Positions 2,629 to 64,000 of a stretch of 64,000 bases of DNA are shown here, in pieces. The stretch comes from Escherichia coli (lineage in GTDB: Bacteria > Pseudomonadota > Gammaproteobacteria > Enterobacterales > Enterobacteriaceae). Each line of letters opens with the position of its first letter. Within the stretch, counting starts at the first letter, position 1. The notes beneath the pieces are model-generated. The model saw only the letters and a list, made by a program, of their open reading frames with translations. It searched no databases and was not told the DNA's origin. Made by a program: the position numbers and the translations under genes. The stretch is from assembly GCF_051903065.1 (NCBI RefSeq), contig NZ_CP178438.1, one strand, 5' to 3'.

Positions 2629-8180
<5,552 letters not shown>

Positions 8181-8182
8181 CA

Positions 8183-8735: not shown

Positions 8736-8987
8736 ATGCGTATTACCATAAAAAGATGGGGGAACAGTGCAGGTATGGTCATTCCCAATATCGTAATGAA
8801 AGAACTTAACTTACAGCCGGGGCAGAGCGTGGAAGCGCAGGTGAGCAACAACCAACTGATTCTGACACCCATCTCCAGGCGCTACTCGCTTGATGAACTG
8901 CTGGCACAGTGTGACATGAACGCCGCGGAACTTAGCGAGCAGGATGTCTGGGGTAAATCCACCCCTGCGGGTGACGAAATATGGTAA
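8736..8987 (+). CDS. chpS: ChpS antitoxin (MazE-like)
   Basis: MRITIKRWGNSAGMVIP AbrB/MazE-type fold; RBS aaggagg 5 nt upstream of ATG 8736; 7-nt overlap with chpB. Confidence 0.9.
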   Translation: MRITIKRWGNSAGMVIPNIVMKELNLQPGQSVEAQVSNNQLILTPISRRYSLDELLAQCDMNAAELSEQDVWGKSTPAGDEIW

Positions 8988-9331
8988 AGAAAAGTGAATT
9001 TGAACGGGGAGACATTGTGCTGGTTGGCTTTGATCCAGCAAGCAGCCATGAACAGCAAGGTGCTGGTCGACCTGCGCTTGTGCTCTCCGTTCAAGCCTTT
9101 AATCAACTGGGAATGACGCTGGTGGCCCCCATTACGCAGGGTGGAAATTTTGCCCGTTATGCCGGATTTAGCGTTCCTTTACATTGCGAAGAAGGCGATG
9201 TGCACGGCGTGGTGCTGGTTAATCAGGTGCGGATGATGGATCTACGCGCCCGGCTGGCAAAGCGTATTGGTCTGGCTGCGGATGAGGTGGTGGAAGAGGC
9301 GTTATTACGCTTGCAGGCGGTGGTGGAATAA
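8981..9331 (+). CDS. chpB: ChpB toxin (MazF-family endoribonuclease)
   Basis: 116-aa ORF, PemK/MazF-like, overlapping the upstream antitoxin gene. Confidence 0.9.
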   Translation: MVKKSEFERGDIVLVGFDPASSHEQQGAGRPALVLSVQAFNQLGMTLVAPITQGGNFARYAGFSVPLHCEEGDVHGVVLVNQVRMMDLRARLAKRIGLAADEVVEEALLRLQAVVE

Positions 9332-32880: not shown

Positions 32881-33160
32881 ACATCCTCCCGGCAAATTGT
32901 CCGGCATTATACTCATCGTCAGAAGCGGTGCAAGCATTTGATGCAATATTTTGTCAGCGCAAACGGTTTATTTGAATTATAAGTCAAAATATATGCATTT
33001 TTATTTACTGTGATTCTGGAGGGGAACTGTCGTTCGGTATCAATAATTGCAGACATTTCCTGCTTTTTTCTTTTTCACTTTCACGCAATCAGATATGCAT
33101 TTTATTCCATTCATCCGACTTATAGGGCGGAGTGTGAAAACGAACGGCTAACACTATTGC

Positions 33161-33556
33161 TTACAGCTCAGGGATGCGCGCTATCACTTTAATTTCAAAA
33201 TCAAAGCCTGCCAGCCATGTAACGCCCACCGCCGTCCAGGTTGGATAAGGTGGCGCGCTAAATATTTCATTTTTCACCGTCATGATGTCTTCAAATTGTT
33301 TTTCTGGATCGGTATGAAAGCTCGTAACATCAATGATATCGTCAAAAGTGCATCCCGCAGCTGCCAGGGTCGCATGCAAATTATCAAATGCCAGTCTGAC
33401 TTGTTGCTGAAAATCGGGTTCTGGTGTTCCGTCCTCTCGACTTCCTACTTGCCCGGAAACAAACAGCAAATCGCCGGAACGAATAGCCGCAGAATAACGA
33501 TGTTCTGCATACAGTGAATGTCGGCCAGCAGGGAAAACAGCGGTTCTTTCTACCAT
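33161..33556 (-). CDS. yjgH: RidA/YjgF-family protein YjgH
   Basis: 131-aa ORF with Rid family features. Confidence 0.9.
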   Translation of the reverse strand: MVERTAVFPAGRHSLYAEHRYSAAIRSGDLLFVSGQVGSREDGTPEPDFQQQVRLAFDNLHATLAAAGCTFDDIIDVTSFHTDPEKQFEDIMTVKNEIFSAPPYPTWTAVGVTWLAGFDFEIKVIARIPEL

Positions 33557-33686
33557 TTGGTTATCCTCAAGATTTACGACATGAACAGAAGATTTATATT
33601 TACCAGGAGCCGCTTTTAGCGGACGACGTGAGTAAACAAAACCCAGACATCATGGGAAATGGCTGGGCTTAATTGAGCGTAGTCGG

Positions 33687-34400
33687 TTATGCGCCAAACG
33701 CGCCATCAATGGTATGCATCGCGCCGGTAACAAAACTGGCTTCTGGCCCTGCTAACCATGCGACCATACCAGCGACCTCTTCCGGTTGCCCATGTCTTTT
33801 GATAGCCATAAAACTATGCAACATATCGCGCATTGGCCCGTTGGCGGGATTAGCGTCGGTATCAATTGGCCCTGGCTGGACGACGTTGATGGTGATCCCA
33901 CGCGGTCCAAAATCACGGGCCAGCCCGCGCGCCATGCCTTGTAGGGCAGATTTACTGGCGGCATAAGCAGCCATGCCTGCAACAGGCATACGATCGCCAT
34001 TCACGGAGCCGATGATTAAGATGCGCCCGCCTTCGGGCATCTGCCGGGCGGCTTCAACAGAGGCATGGTAAGGAGCATGAATATTGATTTTGAAAAGGCG
34101 ATCAATATCGTCGGCATTTAATTCCAGGGCATCGCCAAAGACGCCAATACCTGCATTTACCACCAGGATATCCAATGCGCCGCTCTTACGAACGACATCA
34201 ATGACAGCGTCTCTGTCAGCACTATCTGTGAATACTGCTGTCGCTCCAGTCTCTTGTGCCAGGTGTTCAGCGGCATCTTTCGACCCCGCATAGGTGAATC
34301 GTACATTGGCCCCATCGGTGACGAAACGACGTACGATAGCGGCACCGATACCACGACTGCCACCGAGGATGAGAACTGTCTTACCTGTAAAAGCGCCCAT
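33687..34400 (-). CDS. bdcA: short-chain dehydrogenase/reductase BdcA (YjgI)
   Basis: MGAFTGKTVLILGGSRGIGAAIV Rossmann motif; 237 aa from ATG 34400. Confidence 0.9.
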   Translation of the reverse strand: MGAFTGKTVLILGGSRGIGAAIVRRFVTDGANVRFTYAGSKDAAEHLAQETGATAVFTDSADRDAVIDVVRKSGALDILVVNAGIGVFGDALELNADDIDRLFKINIHAPYHASVEAARQMPEGGRILIIGSVNGDRMPVAGMAAYAASKSALQGMARGLARDFGPRGITINVVQPGPIDTDANPANGPMRDMLHSFMAIKRHGQPEEVAGMVAWLAGPEASFVTGAMHTIDGAFGA

Positions 34401-34470
34401 AAGGACTCCTTGATTTATTATGTAACATGCATTACAAAACTGTTTTAACTTTCTGTCAATAAGTTTTGTA

Positions 34471-35064
34471 ATGGTCACTAAAAAACAATCTCGCGTTCCA
34501 GGTCGTCCCAGACGTTTCGCTCCTGAGCAGGCAGTCTCTGCGGCAAAAGTGCTTTTTCACCAAAAAGGTTTCGATGCTGTCAGTGTTGCTGAAGTTACTG
34601 ATTATCTTGGTATTAACCCCCCGAGCCTCTACGCGGCTTTTGGCAATAAGGCTGGGTTATTTAGCCGTGTACTCAATGAATATGTCGGTACGGAAGCTAT
34701 TCCGCTTGCCGATATTCTTCGTGATGATCGTCCGGTAGGGGAGTGCCTGGCTGAGGTATTAAAAGAAGCGGCGCGCAGATATAGCCAAAACGGCGGCTGC
34801 GCTGGCTGTATGGTTCTTGAAGGCATTCATAGTCATGATCCACAAGCGCGTGATATTGCCGTTCAATATTATCACGCCGCAGAAACGGCCATTTATGACT
34901 ATATCGCCAGGCGGCATCCACAAAGCGCACAATGTGTGACTGATTTTATGAGTACCGTGATGTCAGGGCTTTCTGCGAAGGCACGAGAGGGGCACTCCCT
35001 CGAACAACTCTGTGCAACAGCTGCACTGGCGGGGGGAGCGATAAAAACTATTCTCAAGGAGTGA
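34471..35064 (+). CDS. bdcR: TetR-family transcriptional regulator BdcR (YjgJ)
   Basis: 197-aa ORF with N-terminal TetR HTH; divergent from bdcA. Confidence 0.85.
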   Translation: MVTKKQSRVPGRPRRFAPEQAVSAAKVLFHQKGFDAVSVAEVTDYLGINPPSLYAAFGNKAGLFSRVLNEYVGTEAIPLADILRDDRPVGECLAEVLKEAARRYSQNGGCAGCMVLEGIHSHDPQARDIAVQYYHAAETAIYDYIARRHPQSAQCVTDFMSTVMSGLSAKAREGHSLEQLCATAALAGGAIKTILKE

Positions 35065-35196
35065 TGCGGGCCTTGACCCGAAAGGCGGGAACGCGCCTGC
35101 CGATAAGTTGTGATAAGACAATAATTCACGCGTTAAGGCTAGCGGAATTGATCATCTTTTCGTATAACGATAGAAATGAAACGTTGTTTTAATTAA

Positions 35197-35661
<465 letters not shown>

Positions 35662-35826
35662 TGACTTTTCGCCGTAAATAACTCCAGGTTTACGGCGAGT
35701 TTGTGAAAAGAGCGTTTTTTGATATTTTTTTGTGAGTAAAATTTGTAATGCTTAGACGTTCTTATTAACTCAAGGAGTTCGTCATGAGCAAAATATCAGA
35801 TTTGAATTATTGGTAATGACTCCAAC

Positions 35827-36330
35827 TTATTGATAGTGTTTTATGTTCAGATAATGCCCGATGACTTTGTCATGCAGCTCCACCGATTTTGAGAACGACA
35901 GCGACTTCCGTCCCAGCCGTGCCAGGTGCTGCCTCAGATTCAGGTTATGCCGCTCAATTCGCTGCGTATATCGCTTGCTGATTACGTGCAGCTTTCCCTT
36001 CAGGCGGGATTCATACAGCGGCCAGCCATCCGTCATCCATATCACCACGTCAAAGGGTGACAGCAGGCTCATAAGACGCCCCAGCGTCGCCATAGTGCGT
36101 TCACCGAATACGTGCGCAACAACCGTCTTCCGGAGCCTGTCATACGCGTAAAACAGCCAGCGCTGGCGCGATTTAGCCCCGACATAGCCCCACTGTTCGT
36201 CCATTTCCGCGCAGACGATGACGTCACTGCCCGGCTGTATGCGCGAGGTTACCGACTGCGGCCTGAGTTTTTTAAGTGACGTAAAATCGTGTTGAGGCCA
36301 ACGCCCATAATGCGGGCTGTTGCCCGGCAT
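35827..36330 (-). CDS. insB: IS1 transposase InsB (expressed as InsAB' by frameshift)
   Basis: 167-aa [30 protein letters not shown]... Confidence 0.9.
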
Positions 36331-36524
36331 CCAACGCCATTCATGGCCATATCAATGATTTTCTGGTGCGTACCGGGTTGAGAAGCGGTGTAAGTGAACT
36401 GCAGTTGCCATGTTTTACGGCAGTGAGAGCAGAGATAGCGCTGATGTCCGGCGGTGCTTTTGCCGTTACGCACCACCCCGTCAGTAGCTGAACAGGAGGG
36501 ACAGCTGATAGAAACAGAAGCCAC
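36249..36524 (-). CDS. insA: IS1 protein InsA
   Basis: 91-aa [43 protein letters not shown] (Zn finger). Confidence 0.9.
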
Positions 36525-36646
36525 TGGAGCACCTCAAAAACACCATCATACACTAAATCAGTAAGTTGGCAGCATCACCCACTGCATAAATTAATGTGAT
36601 GCCGGGATGTTTTTTGTGTTTCCCGGCATCTTTATAGCGATATCAA

Positions 36647-37651
36647 TTATTTACTGAGCGTCGCGACCATCACCGCTTTGATGGTATGCATGCGGTTTTC
36701 CGCCTGATCAAATACAATGCTGGCGGCAGATTCGAAGACCTCATCAGTCACTTCCATTCCGCCATGTAGGCCAAACTCTTCCGCCATTTTCTTGCCAAGC
36801 GTCGTCTGGTCGTCATGAAAAGCGGGCAGGCAGTGGAGGAATTTGACCTCAGGGTTACCAGTCAACTGCATCATCTTGCTGTTCACCTGATAATCACGCA
36901 GCAATGCAATGCGTTCAGCCCATTTCTCTTTTGCTTCACCCATCGACACCCATACATCGGTATAGATAAAGTCAGCACCTTCAACTCCTTTGGCTACATC
37001 TTCCGTCAGCGTAATATCCCCGCCATTTTGCTGTGCCAGGGCGCGGCATTCCGTAACCAGCGCAGCTTCCGGCCAGCATGCCTGTGGCGCGACCAGACGC
37101 AAATCCAGACCGGTAAGCGCCGCAGCTTCGAGCATCGAATTGCCCATGTTGTTACGTGCGTCACCTGCATAGACCAGCGTCATTTCGTTGAATGCTTTAC
37201 CGGGTAAATGCTCCTGCATGGTGAGGAGATCCGCCAGCAACTGCGTGGGGTGAAACTCATTGGTCAGGCCGTTCCATACCGGCACGCCAGCGTATTCCGC
37301 CAGTGTTTCGACAATCTCCTGACCATAGCCGCGATACTGAATACCGTCATACATGCGACCCAGCACGCGGGCAGTGTCTTTAATCGACTCTTTATGACCA
37401 ATCTGACTGCCGCTTGGGCCGAGATAAGTAACGCGAGCACCCTGGTCATATGCGGCAACTTCGAAAGAGCATCGGGTACGGGTCGAGTCTTTTTCGAAGA
37501 TGAGCGCGATGTTTTTACCAGTGAGTTTGGCTTCTTCTTTGCCGCTTTTCTTATTGGCTTTCAGCTTCGCGGCTAACTGCAGCAGGCTGTTGAGTTCAGC
37601 TGGCGTGAAATCGAGTAATTTCAGGAAATGCTTATGATAAAACCCGGACAT
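36647..37651 (-). CDS. argI: ornithine carbamoyltransferase
   Basis: 334-aa ORF with STRTR and HCLP motifs. Confidence 0.95.
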
Positions 37652-38229: not shown

Positions 38230-38274
38230 TTAATTGATTAAAATGCCCGATAGCACACACTAGCGGGCATTTTT

Positions 38275-43544: not shown

Positions 43545-43870
<326 letters not shown>

Positions 43871-43876
43871 ACGCAA

Positions 43877-49500: not shown

Positions 49501-49629
49501 GAGATTTCCTCCAGTTTCCTGCCTGGAGTATAGGCAACGGCTGCGCACTCTTCACCGCTAAATTCAGCAGATTGCGAGACGCCTTCCAAAGAGATTTAAG
49601 TGCCGGGCGACAGGCACCCGGCAAAGGGA

Positions 49630-50649
49630 TCAGAAGTCGGCTTTCAGGACCACTCGGTAGCGCGCTTTACCATCGCGCACATGCTTGATGGCGTCGTTAA
49701 TTTTCGACATCGGGAACAGTTCGGTAGTCGGCGCAACCTTGCTGCGGGCGGCAAAGCGCATCAGCTTACGCAACTCATAAGGCGTGCCGGTAGCAGAACC
49801 AGAGACGCTGCGGTCGCCCGCAATTAACGTAAAGGCCGGAACAGACAGCGGCGTGAGGACCGCACCGACCGTATGGAAATTACCGCCATAGGTCAGCGCC
49901 TCAAAATAGGGCTGCCAGTCGAGGCTGACGTTGACGGTGTTGATAATGAGATCAAACTGCCCCGCCAGTGCTTTCAGTGCCTGTGGATCGCGGCTATTCA
50001 CCACTTTATCGGCACCCATCGCCAGCACTTCCTGCTCTTTCGCCGGATTAGAACTAAAGGCCGTCACCTCGCATCCCATTGCGTGCAGAAGTTTTATAGC
50101 GATATGCCCCAGCCCGCCAATACCAATTACCCCAACGCGGCTGGTAGCAGTGATATGGTGCATCAACAGTGGTTTAAAGACCGTGATACCGCCGCACAAC
50201 AGCGGCCCGGCGGACTCGATATCAATATTTTCTGGCAGTGGAATCACCCATTGCCAGTCCGCACGCAACTTCTCGGCAAAGCCACCGCGATTCATAATCG
50301 TCGGCACCGCACCTTGCTCGCAGTTGATCTGATTACCGCTAATACAGGCGTCGCAGTGACCACAGCTACGCGCCGTCCAGCCAATCCCGACACGCTGACC
50401 GACCTGCAAACCTTTATCCTGCGCGGCGCTCCCGAGTGCCACCACGCGACCAATCACCTCATGCCCGGCAACCAGCGGATATTGTGAAAATCCCCATTCG
50501 TTATCGATCATCGACAGATCGGAATGGCAGATCCCGCAGTAATCCACCTGCACTTCAACATCTTGTGGCTTCAGTTCACCGGGATCGTACTCATAAACTT
50601 CCAGTTCGCCGCCTGCTTCTTTTGCGGCATAGCTTTTTATCATCGACAT
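49630..50649 (-). CDS. ahr: NADPH-dependent aldehyde reductase Ahr (Zn-dependent alcohol dehydrogenase family)
   Basis: [10 protein letters not shown]...GHEVIG...GIGGLGH motifs; 339 aa from ATG 50649. Confidence 0.9.
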
Positions 50650-51060: not shown

Positions 51061-51115
51061 CAGATGATGGTATTTCCGGTTCGATAATGCTTGTACCAAC
51101 AGGGAGGGAATACGC

Positions 51116-52381
51116 ATGGCATTAACAGATATCAAAGTCAGAGCAGCCAAGCCAACGGATAAGCAATATAAGCTGACTGATGGTGGCGGTATGCATCTGC
51201 TTGTCCATCCAAATGGTTCTAAGTACTGGCGTTTGCAGTACCGTTATGAGGGAAAGCAAAAAATGCTGGCACTTGGGGTTTATCCTGAAATCACACTAGC
51301 GGATGCCAGAGTACGTCGTGACGAGGCGCGTAAGCTGCTTGCGAATGGCGTCGATCCGGGAGACAAAAAGAAAAATGATAAGGTTGAACAGAGTAAAGCA
51401 CGAACCTTTAAAGAAGTCGCGATTGAGTGGCATGGCACCAATAAAAAGTGGTCTGAAGATCACGCCCATCGTGTGCTAAAAAGTCTGGAAGATAATCTTT
51501 TTGCAGCGCTTGGTGAACGTAATATCGCTGAGTTAAAAACTCGAGATTTATTAGCACCCATTAAGGCCGTAGAAATGTCTGGACGTCTTGAAGTGGCCGC
51601 TCGTCTTCAGCAGCGCACTACAGCCATCATGCGCTATGCAGTGCAAAGTGGGTTAATTGATTATAACCCGGCACAAGAGATGGCTGGGGCGGTTGCTTCC
51701 TGTAATCGACAACATCGTCCCGCGCTTGAATTAAAGCGCATCCCTGAGTTGCTTACAAAAATAGATAGCTATACTGGTAGGCCGCTAACCCGATGGGCGA
51801 CAGAACTCTCTTTGCTGATCTTTATTCGGTCCAGTGAGCTGCGTTTTGCTCGTTGGTCAGAGATCGATTTCGAAGCGTCTATATGGACTATCCCACCGGA
51901 GCGGGAGCCTATTCCTGGAGTGAAACATTCCCATAGAGGCTCAAAAATGCGTACAACGCATCTAGTGCCTCTTTCAACGCAAGCTCTTGCAATTTTAAAG
52001 CAGATAAAACAGTTTTGTGGGGCCCATGACTTGATATTTATTGGTGATCACGATTCGCACAAACCCATGAGTGAGAATACGGTAAATAGTGCGTTACGGG
52101 TCATGGGGTATGATACAAAAGTAGAGGTTTGTGGTCATGGCTTTCGAACAATGGCCTGTAGTTCATTGGTCGAATCAGGTTTGTGGTCTCGTGATGCTGT
52201 TGAACGTCAGATGAGCCACATGGAGCGAAATTCAGTGAGGGCCGCGTATATCCATAAAGCAGAGCATCTGGAAGAACGCCGCTTGATGCTACAATGGTGG
52301 GCCGATTTTCTGGATGCAAACAGAGAAAAATTTATCAGTCCATTTGAATATGCAAAGATTAATAATCCATTAAAACAGTAA
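51116..52381 (+). CDS. P4-type tyrosine integrase (IntB-like) marking a leuX-integrated island
   Basis: 421-aa ORF immediately 3' of a tRNA gene, N-terminal MALTDIKVRAAKP...KYWRL typical of P4 integrases, C-terminal catalytic region with conserved HxxR and Tyr; RBS agggaggg. Confidence 0.9.
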   Translation: MALTDIKVRAAKPTDKQYKLTDGGGMHLLVHPNGSKYWRLQYRYEGKQKMLALGVYPEITLADARVRRDEARKLLANGVDPGDKKKNDKVEQSKARTFKEVAIEWHGTNKKWSEDHAHRVLKSLEDNLFAALGERNIAELKTRDLLAPIKAVEMSGRLEVAARLQQRTTAIMRYAVQSGLIDYNPAQEMAGAVASCNRQHRPALELKRIPELLTKIDSYTGRPLTRWATELSLLIFIRSSELRFARWSEIDFEASIWTIPPEREPIPGVKHSHRGSKMRTTHLVPLSTQALAILKQIKQFCGAHDLIFIGDHDSHKPMSENTVNSALRVMGYDTKVEVCGHGFRTMACSSLVESGLWSRDAVERQMSHMERNSVRAAYIHKAEHLEERRLMLQWWADFLDANREKFISPFEYAKINNPLKQ

Positions 52382-52704
52382 TCATCCCGGGCAAATGCCC
52401 GGGAACTTACTCCATGAATATTTTCTTTGTTAAAAAGGCAAAACGATATTAACTGATGTATTAAATGTTTACCGGATTGCTCCCTGCAGGTGGATTATCA
52501 GAATCCGCAGTTATTCGTTATTTATATATATTCAATAAAAAGAAACATCATAAAAAATCCCGCACCCACAGGGTGATGCGGGATAACTGACGTAAGGAAT
52601 GTTACCGGGATTTGGTGGTCCCTTGTGCTGATATGAATACAGGTTCTATTCTATACAGAATCCTTTTCAGTACAAGAGACTGTATTACAGTTTGCCATAT
52701 ATGA

Positions 52705-54204
52705 TTACCTGTGGTCCGGAAGAATAAGTGGCTGCGGTTTCAGACTGTCTGCCGGCACATTTTTCTCTCCGTTAAAAACCATAACGGGTTCATTATCTTC
52801 GTCTGTCAGCGGATTGAATGGCGGTATATTTTCGGTACGAATACCGGTCAGCCACTGAAAAATGCCTGCGAAATTACGGGCACTGATTTTCCTGCTGACG
52901 GACTGATGAGACGTGATGTCACTGGCGGTAATAATCAGGGGAACGCTGTAGCCCCCCTGCACATGACCATCATGATGAACAGGATTAGCACTGTCGCTGA
53001 CCGACAGCCCATGGTCAGAAAAGTAAAGCATTGCAAAGTGACGGGAATGCCGGCGAAGGATACCATCAAGCTGACCGAGAAAGTTATCCAGTTTACTGAT
53101 GCTGGCGAGGTAACAGGCAATCTTTCGGGGATACTGCTCCAGGTAATAATTCGGCCAGGAGTTAAGTCGGTCACACGGATTCGGATGAGAGCCAATCATG
53201 TGCAGGAAAATCACCTTCGGCGAGGATTTATCCGCCAGCGCACGTTCTGTTTCCTGTAACAACAACATGTCATCCGTTTTACGGGAAGCGAAGCTGCCTT
53301 TCTTGAGGAAAACGGTATGCTCCGCATCAGAAGCAATAACAGAGATGCGTGTGTCATGCTCTCCCAGTTTTCCCTGATTGGATATCCACCATGTGCTGTA
53401 TCCTGCTTTTGCTGCCAGCGCCACCACGTTGTTGCCGGAGTCAGGGTTCTGCTCATAGTCATAAATCAGTGTCCGGCTCAGGGAAGGTACGGTACTGGCT
53501 GCTGTCGATGTATAGCCGTCAATAAATAAACCGGGAGCAGTATTCAGCCACGGCGTGGTTGGCACGGGATAGCCATATACCGACATATAATCCCTGCGCA
53601 CACTCTCACCAGTAACGATAACAATCGTGTCATACAACGGCACACCCGGCAGGATTTTCCAGTTATCAGCCCCGTGCTGACTCAGTTGTTTATAACGCTG
53701 CATTTCACGCAATGTGTCAGTTGTCCCCACAACAGTTCCTTTAACCATCCGCAACGGCCAGCTGTTTACAGAGCATAATACGAATAGCAGCAGTGCCAGC
53801 CAGTTACGGTGACCGCGGTGGTGTGTCCGCCAGAAAATCACCATGAATACCAGAATCGCGGCACTGACCAGAAAATGATAAACAGGAATCATCCCGGTAA
53901 ACTCTGCAGCCTCATCAGCCGTGGTCTGCAGCAACGCGACAATAAAACTGTTGTTGATTTTACCGTACGTCATACCCGCAGGCGCATACAGTGCACAACA
54001 GAACAGAAATAACAGCGCTGTAATGGATGTGAGGGTATTTCTGTGTGCAAGGAGAAGAAGGAGAAACAGAAGCAGCACATTTCCTGTGGCATTCTTCTCA
54101 GTGTATCCGCATGCAATTGTGGTTATTGCAGAAACAACAAAAAAGAATAAAAACAATAAAATCCGGGGTGTGTTTCCCGGACAAAACAGTTTTCTGATAT
54201 TCAT
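52705..54204 (-). CDS. sulfatase-family inner membrane protein, phosphoethanolamine transferase-like (EptA/OpgE family; yjgX-like)
   Basis: 499-aa ORF with N-terminal TM helices and C-terminal sulfatase-type domain (HMIGSH...SDHG). Confidence 0.75.
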   Translation of the reverse strand: MNIRKLFCPGNTPRILLFLFFFVVSAITTIACGYTEKNATGNVLLLFLLLLLAHRNTLTSITALLFLFCCALYAPAGMTYGKINNSFIVALLQTTADEAAEFTGMIPVYHFLVSAAILVFMVIFWRTHHRGHRNWLALLLFVLCSVNSWPLRMVKGTVVGTTDTLREMQRYKQLSQHGADNWKILPGVPLYDTIVIVTGESVRRDYMSVYGYPVPTTPWLNTAPGLFIDGYTSTAASTVPSLSRTLIYDYEQNPDSGNNVVALAAKAGYSTWWISNQGKLGEHDTRISVIASDAEHTVFLKKGSFASRKTDDMLLLQETERALADKSSPKVIFLHMIGSHPNPCDRLNSWPNYYLEQYPRKIACYLASISKLDNFLGQLDGILRRHSRHFAMLYFSDHGLSVSDSANPVHHDGHVQGGYSVPLIITASDITSHQSVSRKISARNFAGIFQWLTGIRTENIPPFNPLTDEDNEPVMVFNGEKNVPADSLKPQPLILPDHR

Positions 54205-54363
54205 CGGAGTATATCGACAACATTATGATGAAGAGAACAGGATAATAAAAATCAGAAATTATCTGTAAAACAGATAACAGACAACCCTGCAGTATAATTA
54301 CTGCAGGGTGTTTCCTTTTAATTACAGAAGATAAGTAATTATTATCTTTCAGGAGCAGTTTCG

Positions 54364-55104
54364 TCAGAAGTTATAAGTCACACCAAGCATGATGTCATGA
54401 CTTTTAACATCAACCTCTGATTTATATTTATCGCCCCACTCATCCTTGTAACTCACACTGCTGTCACCTGCATCAATATAGCGATAGCTGAGGTCAAGAG
54501 CGATATCCGGGGTTACGTCATAACGGACACCAGCCCCAAGGCTCCATGCAAAGTTGTCAGCAGAGTCTGAGTGTGACAACGACTCACGCCCACTGTACCC
54601 GTACCCATAATCCCAGGTACTGATACCAGTTGTTTTCTGATGAATTCTGGCGTAACCAATCCCTGCGGATACCCATGGTGTGAATGCACTGTCGTTCCGG
54701 AAGTCATAGTACGTATTCAGCATCAGAGTGTTGACTGACACTTCATTCTTCAGGTCATCACGCCAGTAACCACCTGACCAGCTGTCTTTATCTACGTTAT
54801 ACTTCGAATCAGCTTTTCCACGCGCGTAAAACTCCAGTTCTGTACGAACCGGAATACTGAACTGCGGATAAAAATCATAACCGGCCGCAATACCGCCACT
54901 GAATACCGTATCATGGTCATCGCCGCCTTTATACTTTGACGTTTCTTCCTCATCTCCTGACAGGAAACGCTGGTCTGAAAGTGACACCACAGAGGCACCG
55001 GCTTTACCGGTCAGATAAAAACCGCTTTTACCTTCCTCAGCACCTGCATTTGCTGCAAATACACAGGCTGCGGCCACCACTGAAACAGCAAAAACCTTTT
55101 TCAT
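54364..55104 (-). CDS. outer membrane beta-barrel protein (OmpA-like transmembrane domain family)
   Basis: 246-aa ORF with signal peptide MKKVFAVSVVAAACVFAANAGA, alternating aromatic/hydrophobic beta-strand pattern and C-terminal ...GVTYNF. Confidence 0.7.
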   Translation of the reverse strand: MKKVFAVSVVAAACVFAANAGAEEGKSGFYLTGKAGASVVSLSDQRFLSGDEEETSKYKGGDDHDTVFSGGIAAGYDFYPQFSIPVRTELEFYARGKADSKYNVDKDSWSGGYWRDDLKNEVSVNTLMLNTYYDFRNDSAFTPWVSAGIGYARIHQKTTGISTWDYGYGYSGRESLSHSDSADNFAWSLGAGVRYDVTPDIALDLSYRYIDAGDSSVSYKDEWGDKYKSEVDVKSHDIMLGVTYNF

Positions 55105-55455
55105 TTCAATTATCTCCGTTATTGCTCCGTTGCTGCAAGCAGTACTCAGTGCATTTTAAAACCCGCCATGCGATAGTCTCAATTGAATAAAATCGATCTA
55201 ATCGATAGATGATATCGATCGTCATTAACCAGAAATTTTTATCGTATTCAGTCAGCACAGATACAACAAATGCATGCCATGCAGACAGTCATACCCGGCA
55301 ACAACAGCAGATGGTTGCTGAGCAAGCAGGGAGTGAGGCTGAATCCCGGGGAAGAAAAAACCTGTAAAATTTGTTTATTCTGCCAGGAGATAAAAGTGAC
55401 GTGTGTTCATGTAACACACCAGGGACGAAAGATGCATGGACTGACAGTTTGGGGG

Positions 55456-56512
55456 GGCTTTGTTGAATAAATCGAACTTTTGCTGAGTTGAAGGATCAGA
55501 TCACGCATCCTCCCGACAACACAGACCATTCCGTGGCAAAGCAAAAGTTCAGAATCACCAACTGGTCCACCTACAACAAAGCTCTCATCAACCGTGGCTC
55601 CCTCACTTTCTGGCTGGATGATGAAGCGATTCAGGCCTGGTATGAGTCGGCAACGCCTTCATCACGAGGAAGGCCCCAGCGCTATTCTGATCTCGCCATC
55701 ACCACCGTTCTGGTGATTAAACGCGTATTCCGGCTGACCCTGCGGGCTGCGCAGGGTTTTATTGATTCCATTTTTGCCCTGATGAACGTTCCGTTGCGCT
55801 GCCCGGATTACACCAGTGTCAGTAAGCGGGCAAAGTCGGTTAATGTCAGTTTCAAAACGTCCACCCGGGGTGAAATCGCACACCTGGTGATTGATTCCAC
55901 CGGGCTGAAGGTCTTTGGTGAAGGCGAATGGAAAGTCAGAAAGCACGGCAAAGAGCGCCGTCGTATCTGGCGAAAGTTGCATCTTGCTGTTGACAGCAAC
56001 ACACATGAAGTTGTCTGTGCAGACCTGTCGCTGAATAACGTCACGGACTCAGAAGCCTTCCCGGGCCTTATCCGGCAGACTCACAGAAAAATCAGGGCAG
56101 CCGCGGCAGACGGGGCTTACGATACCCGGCTCTGTCACGATGAACTGCGCCGCAAAAAAATCAGCGCGCTTATTCCTCCCCGAAAAGGAGCAGGTTACTG
56201 GCCCGGTGAGTACGCAGACCGCAACCGTGCCGTTGCTAATCAGCGGCTGAGCGGAAGCAATGCACGGTGGAAATGGACAACGGAATATAACCGTCGCTCG
56301 ATAGCGGAAACGGCAATGTACAGAATGAAGCAGTTGTTGGGAGATTCACTGACGCTGCGTGACTACGATGGTCAGGTAGCGGAAGCTATGGCCATGGTGC
56401 GTGCGTTGAACAGGATGACAAAGGCTGGGATGCCAGAAAGCGTGCGTATTGCCTGAAAATCCAGCCAGCTACAGGGTCGTTCGCACGAAATCTTATTTAT
56501 TCAACAAAGCCC
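55456..56512 (+). mobile_element. IS903-group insertion sequence (IS5 family), about 1057 bp
   Basis: Left end ggctttgttgaataaatcgaacttttgctgagttgaaggatcag and inverted right end ...tcttatttattcaacaaagcc; single transposase ORF; no flanking 9-bp direct repeat. Confidence 0.85.
55533..56456 (+). CDS. IS903-type transposase (DDE)
   Basis: ORF VAKQKFRITNWSTYNKALINRGSLTFWLDDEAIQAWYE...; start placed at in-frame GTG to give 307 aa (tool ORF begins at TTG 55488). Confidence 0.85.
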   Translation: MAKQKFRITNWSTYNKALINRGSLTFWLDDEAIQAWYESATPSSRGRPQRYSDLAITTVLVIKRVFRLTLRAAQGFIDSIFALMNVPLRCPDYTSVSKRAKSVNVSFKTSTRGEIAHLVIDSTGLKVFGEGEWKVRKHGKERRRIWRKLHLAVDSNTHEVVCADLSLNNVTDSEAFPGLIRQTHRKIRAAAADGAYDTRLCHDELRRKKISALIPPRKGAGYWPGEYADRNRAVANQRLSGSNARWKWTTEYNRRSIAETAMYRMKQLLGDSLTLRDYDGQVAEAMAMVRALNRMTKAGMPESVRIA

Positions 56513-57624
56513 ATACCCCTCTGAAAATCAGTCATCAACTCACCAACACATCTTCTGAAATCTGTATTAAACTTATTGCTTAAATAGATGATATAACACA
56601 TCTTCCATTGCACGGAATCAGCGAAAACTGTCATTCTGGCAATCTTAACAAGATCATTTATCGGTTAATTTTATCAGTAAACAATGGAATATCACACTGA
56701 TAAAATGAACATTCAGGGTAAGATGATAAAATTCACATAAAAAATGCTGAAGATTATTTATTTCATGCAGATAAACGATAAAATACAAGAGAGTATATTT
56801 TTCAGTGTAAGAGTCAATCGTTCATCTCCACTGACGATCACGGTCAGCACATAAACAAAGTGAGTCCTCCTGCTTAGTCATTGCGTATCAGAAACTAAAA
56901 AACAAAAGATTCTGTAAACAACGTGACATTTTTTATGACATTTCCCGAATACAGATATATCAACAAACAGTAGTCAGCGTTGAATTAATAAGTTTTACAG
57001 GGCTATACGTATCTTATAAAACCACTCAACGACCATCATCACCTGACTATTTAGCGGGAGTATCATCTGTATAAATTCCTAAATAATAACACCTGTTATT
57101 AAAATAAGAATGCTGTCAGCAGTAAATTATTAACATAACACCTGTCCACTCTATCTGTTCTTCTAACTCAACCGGCATCGAAAATATTGCCTGATTAGTG
57201 CATCATAGCCTTCTTTTTTCTTTCCCGACCATCAAAACAAATACAACATTTACAACCACACAATAAAACAAAACTAAAACAAAACTAAAACATAAGATTA
57301 ACAACACCAATCAACAGGAAAACACTGAATATTGAGGTGCCCTGTAACCTGGAGAGCGCATACGGCGCATGTGATCAACACAGCCCATTCTTTTCTGTCA
57401 TCCCCCAAATGCAGAACAAACAAGCATAACCTAATGAATATAAAATAAAATATTATTTTTCACCATCATAAAAACATCAATGTATCTTTATATAAAAACA
57501 CTGATAACATGACATAAACATTTAAAAACATAAACAAATCACAACAAAAACATTTGATAATCACTTAGTGACAAAATAAAATTGAGACGATTTTGTTATA
57601 AGAGAGGCGCCATGGAGTGAGATA

Positions 57625-58644
57625 ATGAATAACGAACAGATGCTTATCAAATGCAAAGATCCCCGTAAATGTCGGTTTTATGCTGAATATCTGAATCACA
57701 AATACCCCAATGAATTCCCTCAGTTTGCGCCTGACAACCCACAAAACTGTATCAGAAATGTTAATGCGTTTTTAAAAGAAAAGTATTGTAATACTTCAAA
57801 CAATTCTTTTGGTGTTTTTGGTTCGACTGCAGAAGAAGCTCTCAGCAAAGAAATTAATGAACTTGAAATTATTGCAGGGCAGGCAATACTGCCTGAAGAG
57901 AGTTTTCTCTGGTTGAAAACTGACGAACTTGCGACTTTCTTTACCTGGACTACTATTTATCTGTCGAAGGAAGACCATACAAATTTCCCGGAAATAAACC
58001 ATAATTCATCAGGGATAAAAAACGGAATTGAAGTCAGAAAAAGACGAACAGTTACCGATGAAACGTTAAATACTTACAAAAAAAGTAACCTTCCGGATAA
58101 TCCATCATCCCATAACGAACGAATAAAAGTAATCATTTTATATTTTGATTCCTGTCATTCTTTAATTAATAAAAATGCAAAAAGCATATACCTCGAGGAA
58201 CTCAGGCAGACGTGGCTTAAAAATAAAAGCGCTTGTCAAAAGTTTAAGTGGCTCCTTCCTGACGATGATGAAATGTGTCAGTGGTTCTGGACAAGACTGA
58301 AACAAAAACAGGATGAAACACATCCGGTACATAACCCGGTGACCCGGTGGTTCATACCATCTTCAACGAAAGAATATTATCTTGCCTCTCTCGTCGCCTT
58401 TGCTTTATGGAAAGAGGCACCTGATACCATTGAACTGTTCAGAACACGCATAAATCATGCCTGGCATCAAAAAAAACAAAAAGACAAATATCGGAATGAT
58501 GGTAAAAAGGCTATTAATATACATATAAGAAGCAATGCGAAAGAAATGCTTGATGAACTCAGAACTGTTTACGGTCTGAGAACAGGAGAGTTTTTTGAAA
58601 TGCTGATTACAGAAAAATATCTTGAACACAAGCGAAGGAAGTAA
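57625..58644 (+). CDS. hypothetical protein, AT-rich orphan ORF
   Basis: 339-aa ORF with RBS ggagtgag upstream; lysine/asparagine-rich, several Cys/His; no family recognised from sequence alone. Confidence 0.5.
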   Translation: MNNEQMLIKCKDPRKCRFYAEYLNHKYPNEFPQFAPDNPQNCIRNVNAFLKEKYCNTSNNSFGVFGSTAEEALSKEINELEIIAGQAILPEESFLWLKTDELATFFTWTTIYLSKEDHTNFPEINHNSSGIKNGIEVRKRRTVTDETLNTYKKSNLPDNPSSHNERIKVIILYFDSCHSLINKNAKSIYLEELRQTWLKNKSACQKFKWLLPDDDEMCQWFWTRLKQKQDETHPVHNPVTRWFIPSSTKEYYLASLVAFALWKEAPDTIELFRTRINHAWHQKKQKDKYRNDGKKAINIHIRSNAKEMLDELRTVYGLRTGEFFEMLITEKYLEHKRRK

Positions 58645-58695
58645 TTCATTACCTGTTACATTCTAAATAATCTCAGACAGATATTATCTCCGTGA

Positions 58696-58731
58696 ATCCC
58701 CCGCCACCTTTCCGGTGCGCGGGGTTTTGTC
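58696..58731 (+). terminator. putative rho-independent terminator downstream of the 339-aa ORF
   Basis: GC-rich inverted repeat ccccgc...gcgggg followed by ttttgtctttttt. Confidence 0.45.
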
Positions 58732-58753
58732 TTTTTTCACCGGGAATACATGT

Positions 58754-59581
58754 ATGAATCCGTCTGATGCCATTGAGGCAATTGAAAAACCGCTCTCCTC
58801 CCTGCCTTACTCACTTTCCCGTCACATCCTGGAACATCTGCGCAAACTCACCAGCCACGAACCCGTGATTGGCATTATGGGGAAAAGCGGGGCCGGTAAA
58901 TCCTCACTCTGTAATGCACTGTTTCAGGGGGAGGTCACCCCGGTCAGTGATGTTCACGCCGGCACCCGGGAAGTGCAGCGCTTCCGTCTGAGTGGCCATG
59001 GTCACAGCATGGTTATCACTGACCTGCCCGGGGTGGGCGAGAGCCGTGACAGGGATGCAGAGTATGAAGCCCTGTACCGTAACATTCTGCCTGAACTTGA
59101 CCTGGTACTGTGGCTGATTAAAGCCGATGACCGTGCCTTGTCTGTGGATGAGTATTTCTGGCGACACATTCTGCACCGGGGACATCAGCAGGTGCTGTTT
59201 GTGGTGACGCAGGCCGATAAAACGGAGCCCTGCCATGAATGGGATATGGCCGGTATTCAGCCTTCTCCCGCACAGGCACAGAACATTCGCGAAAAAACGG
59301 AGGCGGTATTCCGTCTGTTCCGGCCCGTACATCCGGTTGTGGCCGTATCGGCTCGCACCGGCTGGGAACTGGATACGCTGGTCAGTGCGCTCATGACAGC
59401 GCTTCCCGACCATGCCGCCAGTCCCCTGATGACCCGCCTGCAGGACGAGCTGCGCACGGAATCTGTCCGCGCTCAGGCCCGTGAACAGTTTACCGGTGCG
59501 GTGGACCGGATATTTGACACGGCGGAGAGCGTCTGTATTGCCTCTGTTGCCCGCGCGGTATGGAACTGGATTTTCTTCTGA
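58754..59581 (+). CDS. YfjP/YeeP/YkfA-family small GTPase (prophage-like island backbone GTPase)
   Basis: P-loop GIMGKSGAGKSSLCNALF, G3 DLPGVGE, G4-like TQADK, C-terminal ...ARAVWNWIFF resembling K-12 YfjP/YkfA from memory; start at ATG 58754 (tool ORF starts at GTG 58715). Confidence 0.8.
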   Translation: MNPSDAIEAIEKPLSSLPYSLSRHILEHLRKLTSHEPVIGIMGKSGAGKSSLCNALFQGEVTPVSDVHAGTREVQRFRLSGHGHSMVITDLPGVGESRDRDAEYEALYRNILPELDLVLWLIKADDRALSVDEYFWRHILHRGHQQVLFVVTQADKTEPCHEWDMAGIQPSPAQAQNIREKTEAVFRLFRPVHPVVAVSARTGWELDTLVSALMTALPDHAASPLMTRLQDELRTESVRAQAREQFTGAVDRIFDTAESVCIASVARAVWNWIFF

Positions 59582-59701
59582 ACCCGGTGGTGATGCACCA
59601 GACTCTTGTTACAGATTTTTAACTCCATGAAAACACAATGCAAACGCAGCCATACCCGGGTTGTCCCCTTGTGTTGTGTTTTCCAGATTAATAGAATGCA
59701 T

Positions 59702-59720
59702 CGATCGTTATAAACGATCG
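59702..59720. promoter_or_regulatory. perfect inverted repeat (cgatcgtt-ata-aacgatcg) about 60 bp upstream of the dynamin-like gene
   Basis: 8-bp arms with 3-bp spacer in the 200-bp gap between the two GTPase genes; candidate operator. Confidence 0.3.
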
Positions 59721-59780
59721 TTTGTGGTAAATGACCTCCTCCGTGGTTGTCATGAAAATGCGTCTCAGGAAGGTTAAATA

Positions 59781-62165
59781 ATGCACGAAAAGAACATCGC
59801 CCTGCTTTGTGATGAAGCCGACCGACTTTTGCAACTGAACATTAATCTGCTCCGGCAAATGGTTGATGAACCGGATGTGTTATCTGACAGTAAGAACGAA
59901 AACAGACTGCTTTTCGATAAACAGAAAGCACTGAAAAGAATTGAGGAGCTGGAGGGCGAACAAATCAAAACCGCCCGCAGGGAGATGGTGCTGGCTGTTG
60001 TCGGCACGATGAAAGCAGGTAAATCAACTACCATCAACGCCATTGTGGGGCAGGAAATTCTGCCTAACCGTAACCGCCCCATGACCTCTGTACCGACGCT
60101 CATCCGCCACGTTCCCGGAAAAACTGAGCCGGTCCTCCATCTGGAACATATTCAGCCCGTCCGCAATTTATTAAGCACACTGCAACAAAAACTCGACACC
60201 CCGGCAGGACAGCAAGTCGCACAGACCCTGCAGCAAACCGGGGATACCTGCGAACTGCTGGATATTCTGGCAAATGATGGCTGGCTCAAAAATGAATACC
60301 ACGGGGAGGAGGAAATCTTTACCGGACTGGCATCGTTAAACGATCTGGTTCGCCTTGCTGCGGCAATGGGGAGTGAGTTTCCTTTTGATGAATACGCAGA
60401 AGTGCAGAAACTGCCGGTGATCGACGTGGAATTCAGCCATCTGGTGGGGATGGATGCATGCCAGGGAACACTCACACTGCTGGATACCCCCGGCCCTAAT
60501 GAGGCCGGACAACCGCAGATGGAAGTGATGATGCGGGATCAACTGCAGAAAGCCTCTGCGGTGCTGGCGGTGATGGATTACACCCAGATGAACTCAAAAG
60601 CGGATGAAGACGTCCGTAAAGAGCTTAATGCCATTGCTGACGTATCAGCCGGCCGCCTGTTTGTGCTGGTCAATAAATTTGATGAGAAAGACCGCAATGG
60701 CGATGGGGCAGATGCCGTACGCCAGAAAGTTCCGGCAATGCTGAACAGTGATGTGCTGCCCGCCTCCCGCGTTTATCCAGGCTCATCACGTCAGGCGTAC
60801 CTGGCTAACCGTGCGCTTCATGAGTTACGGAAAAACGGAACCCTTCCTGTTGATGAAGCCTGGGTCGATGATTTTGTCAGGGAAGCCTTCGGTCGCATGA
60901 AAAAAGAATACGTCTGTAAAGACAGTGAAATGGCAACCGAAGGGGCGACAGACCTGTGGGAAGGTTCACTTATCGATCAACTGATAACGGAAGTCATACA
61001 GAGCTCCCATTCCAGAGCGGCGGCACTGGCGGTTGATTCTGCCGCCGCAAAACTGATGCAGAATGCGGAAAATGTCAGCGAATATCTGTCATTACGCCAT
61101 CAGGGGCTACAGCAAAGCATTCAGTCACTGCAGGCGCATATCTCCAGCCTGCTGGCGGATATCCGGGAAATCGCGGACTGTCAGGAGCAGGTGACCGCAG
61201 ATGTCAGAATGGCTATGGAGGAGATCGATACTAAAACCCGGGAATTACTGACGGGGGTCTGCACCTCACTGGAAGAGGAGCTGAATGACTATTTCAGAAG
61301 CGGTAAACGCAAAGAACAGCAAATGCTGGAGGAAGAAAATTCAGCGCAGCCCCGGGAGAGAAACGCATTCGCTTTCTTTCACGATATTTTCGGAACCGGA
61401 AATCAGCATGACAGGATGCGGGACTTTGATCCGGACAGCCCCGAAATAAAATTCAGTGATCGCAGGGAAGCCCTTGAACTGATGACGCAAATCGAATCGA
61501 CCGTGACCAGCCTGCACCGTGAGGCTGAAGCACAGTTCCGTCCTGAACTGGAAAAAATCGTCAGGGGTATTGAAACAGGTTTTCGTGGTACGGCCCTGTA
61601 CGCCACAGAAAATATTGCCGGACGCATCAATGCCCGTCTGGAGGATGAAGGTTTCACTGTAAAAATCAGTTTTCCGGCAGTCAGCCAGTTACAGACCCGG
61701 CTCGCAGTAAAAACAAATCTGAGCGCGCTTATGGAGGAAAGAACGGAGACCGTCACTCGTCGCTGTCGACAGGATGGTGTCTGGGGTACGCTTTGTCGAT
61801 GGGCAAACACCAGTGACTGGGGCTGGAAAGAGTACAGTGTGGATGTGAGCCGCAGCGTGATCAATATCAACAAGGTCAGAGAGGAAGTGATGTCACTGAC
61901 CCGGGCATATTTCGGGGAGCTGCAGGCATCCATTGAGCAGGATATTAACCAGCCCGTCCGCCAGGAAATCGATGCCTTTTTCTGCGCATTCAGGGAGAAA
62001 GTTGAACAACTGCGTAACACGCTGATTCAGAGCTCTGAAGATCGTAAACGCGATCAGCAGGCGCAGGAACGGCTTACCGGGCGACTTCAGGCATTAAATG
62101 AAAGGGTTCCTGAGCTCATTACTGACAGTAAGGCGCTGAGGGAAGAGCTGGAGACAATGCTGTGA
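59781..62165 (+). CDS. bacterial dynamin-like large GTPase
   Basis: 794-aa ORF; G1 VVGTMKAGKSTTINAIVG (res 73-90), G3 LLDTPGPNE, G4 VLVNKFDEKD, followed by about 500 aa of helical/coiled-coil stalk-like sequence; RBS caggaagg 7 nt upstream. Confidence 0.8.
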   Translation: MHEKNIALLCDEADRLLQLNINLLRQMVDEPDVLSDSKNENRLLFDKQKALKRIEELEGEQIKTARREMVLAVVGTMKAGKSTTINAIVGQEILPNRNRPMTSVPTLIRHVPGKTEPVLHLEHIQPVRNLLSTLQQKLDTPAGQQVAQTLQQTGDTCELLDILANDGWLKNEYHGEEEIFTGLASLNDLVRLAAAMGSEFPFDEYAEVQKLPVIDVEFSHLVGMDACQGTLTLLDTPGPNEAGQPQMEVMMRDQLQKASAVLAVMDYTQMNSKADEDVRKELNAIADVSAGRLFVLVNKFDEKDRNGDGADAVRQKVPAMLNSDVLPASRVYPGSSRQAYLANRALHELRKNGTLPVDEAWVDDFVREAFGRMKKEYVCKDSEMATEGATDLWEGSLIDQLITEVIQSSHSRAAALAVDSAAAKLMQNAENVSEYLSLRHQGLQQSIQSLQAHISSLLADIREIADCQEQVTADVRMAMEEIDTKTRELLTGVCTSLEEELNDYFRSGKRKEQQMLEEENSAQPRERNAFAFFHDIFGTGNQHDRMRDFDPDSPEIKFSDRREALELMTQIESTVTSLHREAEAQFRPELEKIVRGIETGFRGTALYATENIAGRINARLEDEGFTVKISFPAVSQLQTRLAVKTNLSALMEERTETVTRRCRQDGVWGTLCRWANTSDWGWKEYSVDVSRSVININKVREEVMSLTRAYFGELQASIEQDINQPVRQEIDAFFCAFREKVEQLRNTLIQSSEDRKRDQQAQERLTGRLQALNERVPELITDSKALREELETML

Positions 62166-63067
62166 CTTCACCATTTATTCAACAAATTGCTGATAACCGG
62201 GTATGTCAGGTACTCACCTGTCTTCCTGAAAAATTTGTGGTTGATTTCGCAAACGGAATCGATGTTGCACAGGAGCATATCCGCACGGCCGGAGAGCGCA
62301 CGTTCTTCCGGCGTTTAAAAGAGGGGATGACCGGCGAAGGCGCTGCACGGCAGAATGCCATCAATGCTTCGCTTGCACAGGGCGTTGAGGCGTCCCTGCG
62401 CTGGCTGACGGAGCTGACAACGTCACTTGCCACCACAAACTACGCGATTACCCGGGTAAACGACAGGGTCAGTTCACTGGTCAGTGATACTGCCAGGCTG
62501 GCGCATTATTCGGCTGACACGCGGGAGCAGTTACTCACCCTGGCCGATCAGGTTCACCAGAAACTGAATCATCTTGAAGAAAAACTCCACCGTGTTGACC
62601 AGGTTCAGCGGGCGCAGTTACATCTTGAGCAGATATTCTCATGGTGGAGCGCCGGGCGATATGCGTCATTTTCCCCTGCCGGACGTTGTTATGTGGCACT
62701 TGAAGAGCTTCGCTGGGGCGCGTTTGGTGATGTGATACGCCAGGGCGAAACAGGCCAGGTTAACCAGCTACTGGATATTCTCAGACATAAAGCATTAACG
62801 CAGATGGCACAGGAGAGTGGCGGTAGTGCAACCGTGCGTCTGAACACTCTGGACTGGCTTGGTGGTCAGGGCCGGGAGCAGGCAGATAACGAGTGGCATG
62901 ACGCGATTAACTGGCTGGGGGACTGGTGCAGTGAAGAGCAGCATCCGGTGATCTGGTCAACCACGCAGGCTGCAGAACACTTACCGGTTCGCATGCCTCG
63001 CCTCTGCTCTGCAGAACGCCTCTCTGAAAGTATGGTCGATGAAATATTTCAGAAGGGGGCAGCATGA
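62162..63067 (+). CDS. hypothetical protein of unknown function, translationally coupled to flanking genes
   Basis: 301-aa ORF whose GTG start overlaps the upstream stop (GTGA) and whose stop overlaps the downstream ATG (ATGA); predicted helical middle region. Confidence 0.55.
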   Translation: MTSPFIQQIADNRVCQVLTCLPEKFVVDFANGIDVAQEHIRTAGERTFFRRLKEGMTGEGAARQNAINASLAQGVEASLRWLTELTTSLATTNYAITRVNDRVSSLVSDTARLAHYSADTREQLLTLADQVHQKLNHLEEKLHRVDQVQRAQLHLEQIFSWWSAGRYASFSPAGRCYVALEELRWGAFGDVIRQGETGQVNQLLDILRHKALTQMAQESGGSATVRLNTLDWLGGQGREQADNEWHDAINWLGDWCSEEQHPVIWSTTQAAEHLPVRMPRLCSAERLSESMVDEIFQKGAA

Positions 63068-64000
63068 GTACAGAAATGAAAACGGGGCTGGTGCTGTCCG
63101 GCGGCGGGGCGGTGGGCGCTTATCAGGCAGGTGTGGTTAAGGCACTGGCAGAGTGTGGCACACAGATCAGCATGGTTTCAGGGGCCAGCATTGGCGCATT
63201 CAATGGTGCCATTATCGCGGCCTCTCCCGATCTGTCAGAAGCAGCCGCACGCCTGGAGGCGCTCTGGAAGCATCTGGGGAATAATCAGGTGCTGTCGGTA
63301 AACCGATCGGTTTACTTTTCATTGCTGAAAAAAATGGTTCAGGCCATGAACCTCTGCCAGATCCCCGGACGTGCAGGAGCACTGCTTACGACACTTCTTC
63401 GCCATATATCGATAATCAACGGCTTCGACAATCCGATGGCTCAGCCGCTGTTGTCAGATGAGCCTCTGACAGCGCTGTTGGATCATTATCTTGATACTGA
63501 TGCTCTGGCAGACGGGCTACCGCTGTATGTGTCGCTGTACCCCACAGAAGGGGGCATGCAGGATATTATTGACTGCATTCGTGCTGAACTGGGTGCCGGA
63601 ACCACGAAAAACGCCGTTTTTCAGCATATCCAGAGCCTGCCCCGCGGACAGCAGAAAGAGGCTCTGCTTGCGTCAGCCGCGCTGCCCCTGCTGTTCCGTC
63701 CCCGTGAGGTTCAGGGGACAATGTTCGGTGATGGTGGTATGGGAGGATGGCGAAATATGCAGGGAAATACCCCTGTGACGCCTCTGGTCGATGCCGGATG
63801 CAATATGGTGATTGTGACGCATCTGAGTGACGGTTCTTTATGGGATCGCCAGGCTTTTCCGGACACCACAATCCTTGAGATCCGTCCCCGGAAAAGGCTG
63901 AAATATGCAGGTGATGGTGGCAACAGCGGCGGTCTGCTCAGTTTCACGTTGGCACATACCGACGCCTGGCGTCAGCAGGGCTATGAAGACACGATGCTGA
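63064..64000 (+). CDS. patatin-like phospholipase (3' end beyond window)
   Basis: Oxyanion-hole GGGAVGAY, catalytic Ser in GASIG (GxSxG) and catalytic Asp in FGDGGM (DGG) in the correct order and spacing; ORF is open to the window end. Confidence 0.8.
   Translation, partial: MSTEMKTGLVLSGGGAVGAYQAGVVKALAECGTQISMVSGASIGAFNGAIIAASPDLSEAAARLEALWKHLGNNQVLSVNRSVYFSLLKKMVQAMNLCQIPGRAGALLTTLLRHISIINGFDNPMAQPLLSDEPLTALLDHYLDTDALADGLPLYVSLYPTEGGMQDIIDCIRAELGAGTTKNAVFQHIQSLPRGQQKEALLASAALPLLFRPREVQGTMFGDGGMGGWRNMQGNTPVTPLVDAGCNMVIVTHLSDGSLWDRQAFPDTTILEIRPRKRLKYAGDGGNSGGLLSFTLAHTDAWRQQGYEDTML

Follow-up and report, generated by a model that had tools for sequence, protein, structure and literature searches.

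Deletion of the DNA beside an insertion sequence is an established outcome of IS activity, with classical cases described for IS1. Within the chromosome, IS1 transposes replicatively, and its insertions generate target duplications of 8–9 bp (PMC12428005). Where such duplications are missing, their absence has been attributed to adjacent deletions or to recombination between IS copies (PMC11708052). In the LTEE (the Lenski lines), 14 of 14 IS-linked deletions arose by insertion followed by adjacent deletion (PMC11708052). The cases of IS-mediated adjacent deletion described for IS150, IS903 and IS10 leave an intact IS at the edge of a deletion that starts at the IS terminus (PMC11708052). For the gene considered here, yjgL, IS interruption in O104:H4 isolates has already been tabulated (PMC3486847).

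The window, meaning the whole 64,000-nt stretch of E. coli DNA that was analysed, holds a locus with the same architecture. An intact IS1 stands at the edge of a deletion that starts at the IS terminus, there is likewise no duplication, and the loss is single and gene-scale; the window's case is assigned to this class by product structure only. The annotated gene order in K-12 is tabA, yjgL (b4253) and argI. In the window, an IS1-associated deletion has almost certainly left only the first 28 and the last 10 nt of yjgL, and an IS1A-type element marks the site. The features of the region, with the evidence for each, are:

35209–35661, plus strand: tabA, intact upstream neighbour (ORF; annotation of 23CRST027 and K-12)
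35784–35811, plus strand: first 28 nt of yjgL, the 5′ remnant (BLAST, with the junction aligned to K-12 and LH13-b; flank identical to the intact alleles L040, L042 and L043)
35812–36579, minus strand: IS1, IS1A type, 768 bp (767/768 identity to K-12 IS1A; IS1A-family transposase in the annotation of the near-identical 23CRST027)
35812–35834, no strand: IRR, the right terminal inverted repeat, GGTAATGACTCCAACTTATTGAT (end-versus-end alignment)
35827–36330, minus strand: insB′ frame, a 167-aa ORF, the catalytic part of the InsAB′ transposase (ORF; Pfam DDE_Tnp_IS1, E=2.3e-78, full-length profile)
36249–36524, minus strand: insA, 91 aa (ORF; Pfam Zn_ribbon_InsA, E=1.3e-21, and HTH_Tnp_IS1, E=4.7e-31)
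36267–36273, minus strand: A6C (AAAAAAC), the programmed −1 frameshift motif in the insA/insB′ overlap (IS1 position 307–313 on the coding strand; also direct reading)
36557–36579, no strand: IRL, the left terminal inverted repeat, which carries the insA promoter (end-to-end alignment)
36580–36589, plus strand: last 10 nt of yjgL, CACTGCATAA, the 3′ remnant with the stop codon (alignment to K-12 and LH13-b)
36598–36630, no strand: GC-rich inverted repeat (GATGCCGGG...CCCGGCATC), located between the stop codons of yjgL and argI (direct reading; conserved in K-12 and LH13-b)
36647–37651, minus strand: argI (PGAP name argF), intact convergent downstream neighbour (334-aa ORF; annotation; exact protein in many assemblies)

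The element at 35812–36579 is the only IS1 copy in the window. It is complete at exactly 768 bp, begins with GGTAATGACTCC and ends with GGCAGCATCACC, and differs from the IS1A of K-12 MG1655 at a single base. Like that reference element, it has imperfect terminal repeats, insA, insB′ and the A6C frameshift site. Its transposase genes lie on the minus strand, so that the IRR end faces tabA and the IRL end faces argI. The two ends are imperfect inverted repeats of the ~23 bp typical of the family, matching at 18 of the first 23 positions (GGTAATGAC... versus GGTGATGCT...), and a simple scan placed a promoter-like site at 36572–36545 on the minus strand, in the IRL region. The profiles PF03811, PF12759 and PF03400 all scored far above their cut-offs, with insB′ in the −1 frame relative to insA and the A6C site in place. 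Given the intact insA, insB′, A6C motif and terminal repeats, this IS1 is complete and apparently functional.

BLAST against the K-12 tabA-yjgL-argI region gave two collinear blocks, window 33000–35811 and 36580 onward. The left junction falls at yjgL nt 28 (window 35811), and the right junction (window 36580) at nt 1806 of 1815 in K-12 numbering or nt 1728 of 1737 in LH13-b. Upstream of IS1, the yjgL ribosome-binding site AAGGAG (35772–35777) and the ATG at 35784 remain, followed by the nine codons MSKISDLNY; the truncated ORF (35784–35816) reads MSKISDLNYW*, a product of 10 residues in which TGG TAA comes from the IS1 end and the TAA occupies 35814–35816. Both remnants, the 28 nt of the start and the 10 nt of the end, match yjgL in K-12, LH13-b, L040, L042 and L043, in the same gene order. 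At both ends, yjgL sequence adjoins the very last base of IS1. The 9 bp on either side, TGAATTATT and CACTGCATA, do not repeat each other, and no target duplication of 7–10 bp appeared when either boundary was shifted by up to 4 bp, the longest word common to the two flanks being 5 bp. This IS1 thus differs from a simple IS1 insertion, which carries an 8–9-bp duplication; the duplication is absent because of the flanking deletion.

Much of this had been anticipated by the initial annotation, which bracketed the feature correctly at 35781–36588. It had described a complete 768-bp IS1 between tabA and argI, preceded by aaggag and an ATG frame, MSKISDLNY, that runs into the element, and both descriptions agree with the coordinates and ORF given above. 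Its proposal that yjgL occupies this position in K-12, and that the frame is the start of that gene, was borne out by BLAST and by the conserved tabA-yjgL-argI synteny. Its statement that the flanking 9 bp are not a direct repeat also holds. The alignment to K-12 that it had proposed as a check places the sequence right of IS1 at the yjgL 3′ end and its flank, with ~1.8 kb missing. The short 5′ remnant that it described is the 28-nt 5′ part; the 10-nt 3′ remnant with its stop codon had been overlooked. It had also proposed an IS1-mediated adjacent deletion rather than a simple insertion. With ~1.8 kb missing, the event was not a simple insertion; adjacent deletion is the leading reading, and recombination between two IS1 copies gives the same product.

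The extent of the missing DNA depends on the reference. It is 1777 bases relative to K-12, 1699 relative to LH13-b and 1630 relative to OkiPb01695. The best references are L035, L040, L042 and L043, which encode exactly the ArgI protein of the window and, for the last three, also its TabA, and whose flanks show 1–3 mismatches to the window in 3–5 kb; relative to these, 1807 (L035), 1825 (L040), 1861 (L042) and 1843 (L043) bases are missing. The lengths of yjgL differ among strains because of an 18-bp tandem array, which has 16.3 copies in L042 and encodes KLNNLQ-like repeats. The alleles in L040, L042, L043 and L035, which among them measure 614, 620, 626 and 632 aa, differ by whole 18-bp units. 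The event removed ~1.8 kb, all within the yjgL coding sequence; with the 10-nt 3′ remnant and its stop codon surviving, the deletion lies wholly inside the gene. The 620-aa allele has an internal stop codon, read in L040, the representative of this allele and of seven further similar contigs. With this nonsense allele in the closest relatives, yjgL is decaying by several routes in the window's lineage.

The same IS1 and deletion are present in the RefSeq genomes 23CRST027 and 23CRST031 and in GCA_949766195.1. Among 24 contigs read with the same TabA allele, 12 end inside IS1 at the identical left junction (junction sequence checked for the representative L044), and 5 of the 24 read with the same ArgI allele end inside IS1 at the identical right junction (checked for the representative L039). 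Because the allele recurs in other long assemblies and in draft contigs at identical junctions, it is real and clonally inherited in a small E. coli lineage, and is not an assembly error. The window is near-identical to 23CRST027, which holds ~37 IS1 places, from position 1 to ~50,930 (one substitution and one homopolymer indel) and then diverges at the leuX island, indicating that the window comes from a sister strain. GDSC2BY4G, which shares the leuX island at 99.9%, was considered as the closest relative and set aside as uninformative: identity in the core reaches only 98.3%, and its yjgL pseudogene is a different one.

Several other differences were observed within the window. The island downstream of tRNA-Leu (leuX), at 51084–64000, is unlike that of K-12 and unlike that of 23CRST027, which carries a type I R-M system and McrBC. 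In the window, the island, 99.9% identical to that of GDSC2BY4G, has an intact integrase ORF (51116–52381), dynamin-family, patatin-like and RdcB-family genes, and an IS903-like stretch (55456–56512); the IS2K of K-12 is absent. In K-12, the idn operon (idnR, idnT, idnO, idnD and idnK) fills ~5.1 kb between yjgR and ahr; the window lacks it and has ~90 bp in its place (49539–49630). Between holC and pepA (43574–43871) lies a tandem array of a 98-bp REP-like unit in 3.1 copies with a 91% match, of which K-12 has fewer copies. The rraB-yjgM spacer (38233–38263) measures 29 bp, compared with ~128 bp in K-12; a short intergenic element present in K-12 is probably absent from the window.

Comparison of the yjgL regions of other genomes (loci L003–L021 and L024, equivalent to window 35784–36589) placed the window's allele among many IS1 events at this gene. 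In the window's orientation, 18 IS1 copies at yjgL were mapped in 17 representative genomes. Thirteen of the mapped copies are flanked by perfect duplications of 8 or 9 bp, with no DNA lost; FDAARGOS_1248 and 90-9281 share one site with the same TGATTCTG duplication, so the 13 copies represent 12 different sites. One duplication-flanked site, in YZ22MPE54, is only 14 bp from the window's left junction. Six other copies, in EC0026B, 2EC1, KFu014, 2017.18.04CC, ET734 and WWCOL-236, have no duplication, and at least four of the six are partial or near-complete deletions. The losses amount to 232 bp in 2EC1, ~1.4 kb including the yjgL start in KFu014, and ~1.5 kb in 2017.18.04CC; ET734 shows a rearrangement, and WWCOL-236 a further deletion with IS1 in the opposite orientation to the window's. 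The junction retained in 2EC1 coincides with the site of a duplication-flanked IS1 in AVS0247. FDAARGOS_1248 has two direct IS1 copies inside yjgL (L007 5224–5991 and 6382–7149) with duplications CAGTTGATT and TGATTCTG, the copies being only ~91% and 99.5% identical to the window's IS1, and this pair is a ready-made substrate for recombinational deletion. Strain 200112, judged by search matches, also has two direct copies in yjgL. Overall, as the sum of four partly overlapping counts, some 100 of the 5426 complete genomes carry an IS1 end no more than ~620 bp from one or other end of yjgL.

The window's allele shares its locus, element family and yjgL inactivation with O104:H4 2009EL-2050/2071, KFu014, 2017.18.04CC, 2EC1, WWCOL-236 and FDAARGOS_1248, but each of these alleles arose independently, with junctions at other positions. 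In O104:H4, IS1 simply inserted and is flanked by a AAGAACACT duplication, whereas the window has a deletion, the most complete among the compared alleles that stay within the coding sequence. Orientation bias of IS1 in yjgL was considered as a signal of selection and rejected, both orientations being common. The window's orientation and its opposite were found in 22 and 20 genomes, respectively, near the yjgL 5′ end, and in 48 and 17 near the 3′ end, where the excess of 48 is largely made up of O104:H4 and RIVM_C-series genomes with one common insertion.

A further rearrangement was observed in PSS-08-2, a strain unrelated to the window's (L023 3621–4388 and L025 2825–3592). There, an IS1 uses the same bond as the window's, directly after yjgL nt 28, with its IRL end at the junction and thus in the opposite orientation. 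Two IS1 copies in the same orientation, only 93% identical to each other, bracket an inverted segment that reaches from yjgL into yjgN. An IRL end lies on either side of the break in yjgL, together with an 8-bp duplication, GAATTTTT, in inverted form, and yjgN lacks ~300 bp. Neither a single intramolecular transposition nor a single inter-IS recombination fits the orientations of the ends, and both were rejected as sources of this inversion.

The route that we favour for the window, with somewhat better than even confidence, is insertion of IS1 followed by an IS1 adjacent deletion. In the initial step, an ordinary IS1 insertion with an 8–9-bp duplication would have entered AT-rich yjgL at the present left or right junction. 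InsAB′ would then have driven intramolecular replicative transposition from this copy into another yjgL site ~1.8 kb off, in the orientation that joins the new target to one end of IS1, the DNA between being lost as a circle. The product would be an intact IS1 bordered by one old and one new flank, without a duplication, and the outcome a yjgL null allele, inherited clonally, with tabA, argI and the intergenic hairpin untouched. The structure found in the window is of this kind: an intact IS with precise termini, flanks that are ancestrally non-adjacent, no duplication, and a loss of 1777–1861 bp, according to which reference is used. What was observed is this structure, the loss of DNA, the lack of a duplication and the clonal spread; the order of events and a transposase-driven second step are what we infer from these observations. 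With a GC content of 32%, compared with 51% for the window, and 13 duplication-flanked copies in other genomes, yjgL is a good IS1 target, which counts in favour of this route. Recurrence of a single IS1 with adjacent loss in 2EC1, KFu014, 2017.18.04CC and WWCOL-236 also counts in its favour, as does the reuse of the AVS0247 insertion site as a junction in 2EC1.

The same product could have been generated by two independent same-orientation IS1 insertions, duplicating TGAATTATT at the yjgL start and CACTGCATA at its end, followed by RecA-dependent recombination that deleted the interval together with one copy. Inter-IS recombination is a frequent cause of missing duplications (PMC11708052), and it would leave exactly what is seen, a single IS1 with the outer half of each duplication beside it. 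IS1 enters yjgL very often, direct pairs inside the gene do exist (FDAARGOS_1248 and, by search matches, 200112), and with the ~37 IS1 places of the related 23CRST027 a second insertion is not improbable. We nevertheless consider recombination possible rather than probable. It needs three events, while insertion followed by adjacent deletion needs two; no double-insertion relative was seen among genomes of the same flanking haplotype; and double insertions occur in one lineage only, against six other duplication-less copies, most with DNA missing. Adjacent deletion is favoured both for the smaller number of events and because single-copy deletion products are much commoner at yjgL than double insertions. 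No precursor, that is, an IS1 at either junction with its duplication and the rest of yjgL present, was found in 5426 complete E. coli genomes searched with each junction of the window's IS1, the only one-piece matches being 23CRST027 and 23CRST031, both deleted. The 48 contigs with the same TabA or ArgI allele held intact, nonsense and IS1-deleted yjgL and no intermediate, and a scan of JGI metagenome contigs gave 0 matches for each of the two hypothetical precursor junctions, IRL-TGAATTATT-CTCAACAC and CTATCACTGCATA-IRR (GGTAATGAC).

Non-canonical routes appear improbable. IS1 might have inserted in one step into the break of a spontaneous deletion (“IS-Del without TSD”), or an internal IS1 might have been followed by separate deletions from each end. 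Movement of IS5 coupled to a duplication-less deletion is described, insertion into breaks has been proposed, and adjacent deletions often grow stepwise (PMC11708052). However, capture of a break by IS1 is without support in the literature examined, the two-sided version takes three events, and both junctions are clean at the exact IS1 termini, like transposase-made joints. A simple insertion with a decayed duplication, or an assembly artefact that collapsed the locus, would explain the bare absence of a duplication and nothing else. The alignments refute this explanation, to which we give practically no credence: all close relatives have the ~1.8 kb that the window lacks, and the identical structure recurs at many draft contig ends and in complete assemblies made independently (23CRST027, 23CRST031 and GCA_949766195.1).

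It is a separate question whether yjgL is a true IS1 hot spot, repeatedly disrupted or deleted beyond what its AT-richness predicts. This reading draws on the duplication-flanked copies (at least 13), the six copies without a duplication, the reuse in PSS-08-2 of the bond found in the window and the nonsense allele in the closest relatives; we put it forward with considerable doubt. One possible cause of such a pattern is that IS1 is directed to DNA bound by H-NS; another is that losing an uncharacterised repeat-containing protein is favoured by selection.

As a consequence of the deletion, yjgL is predicted to be null in the window's strain. Judged from the sequence, the yjgL promoter and ribosome-binding site would now be able to make only the 10-residue peptide, and transcription would run antisense into IS1. 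The coding sequences of tabA and argI and the yjgL/argI hairpin are unchanged. The hairpin, the inverted repeat at 36598–36630, has a loop of 15 nt, above the 3–8-nt limit of a simple hairpin scan, which hence did not report it; it is probably a bidirectional terminator shared by yjgL and argI and spared by the deletion. The yjgL product gave only a sub-threshold Pfam match, SopA-like (24.6 bits against a cut-off of 27), and matched no NCBIfam family. The nonsense allele in close relatives would fit a dispensable gene.

What the window shows is a textbook case of IS1-associated gene deletion, one that public genomes already contain, with IS1 annotated. Its significance is mainly one of annotation: the allele, a clean yjgL null, marks a small E. 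coli lineage and is an example of IS1 eroding AT-rich accessory genes. The many independent IS1 insertions and deletions in yjgL could serve as a natural data set on how IS1 chooses its targets and on how dispensable yjgL is.
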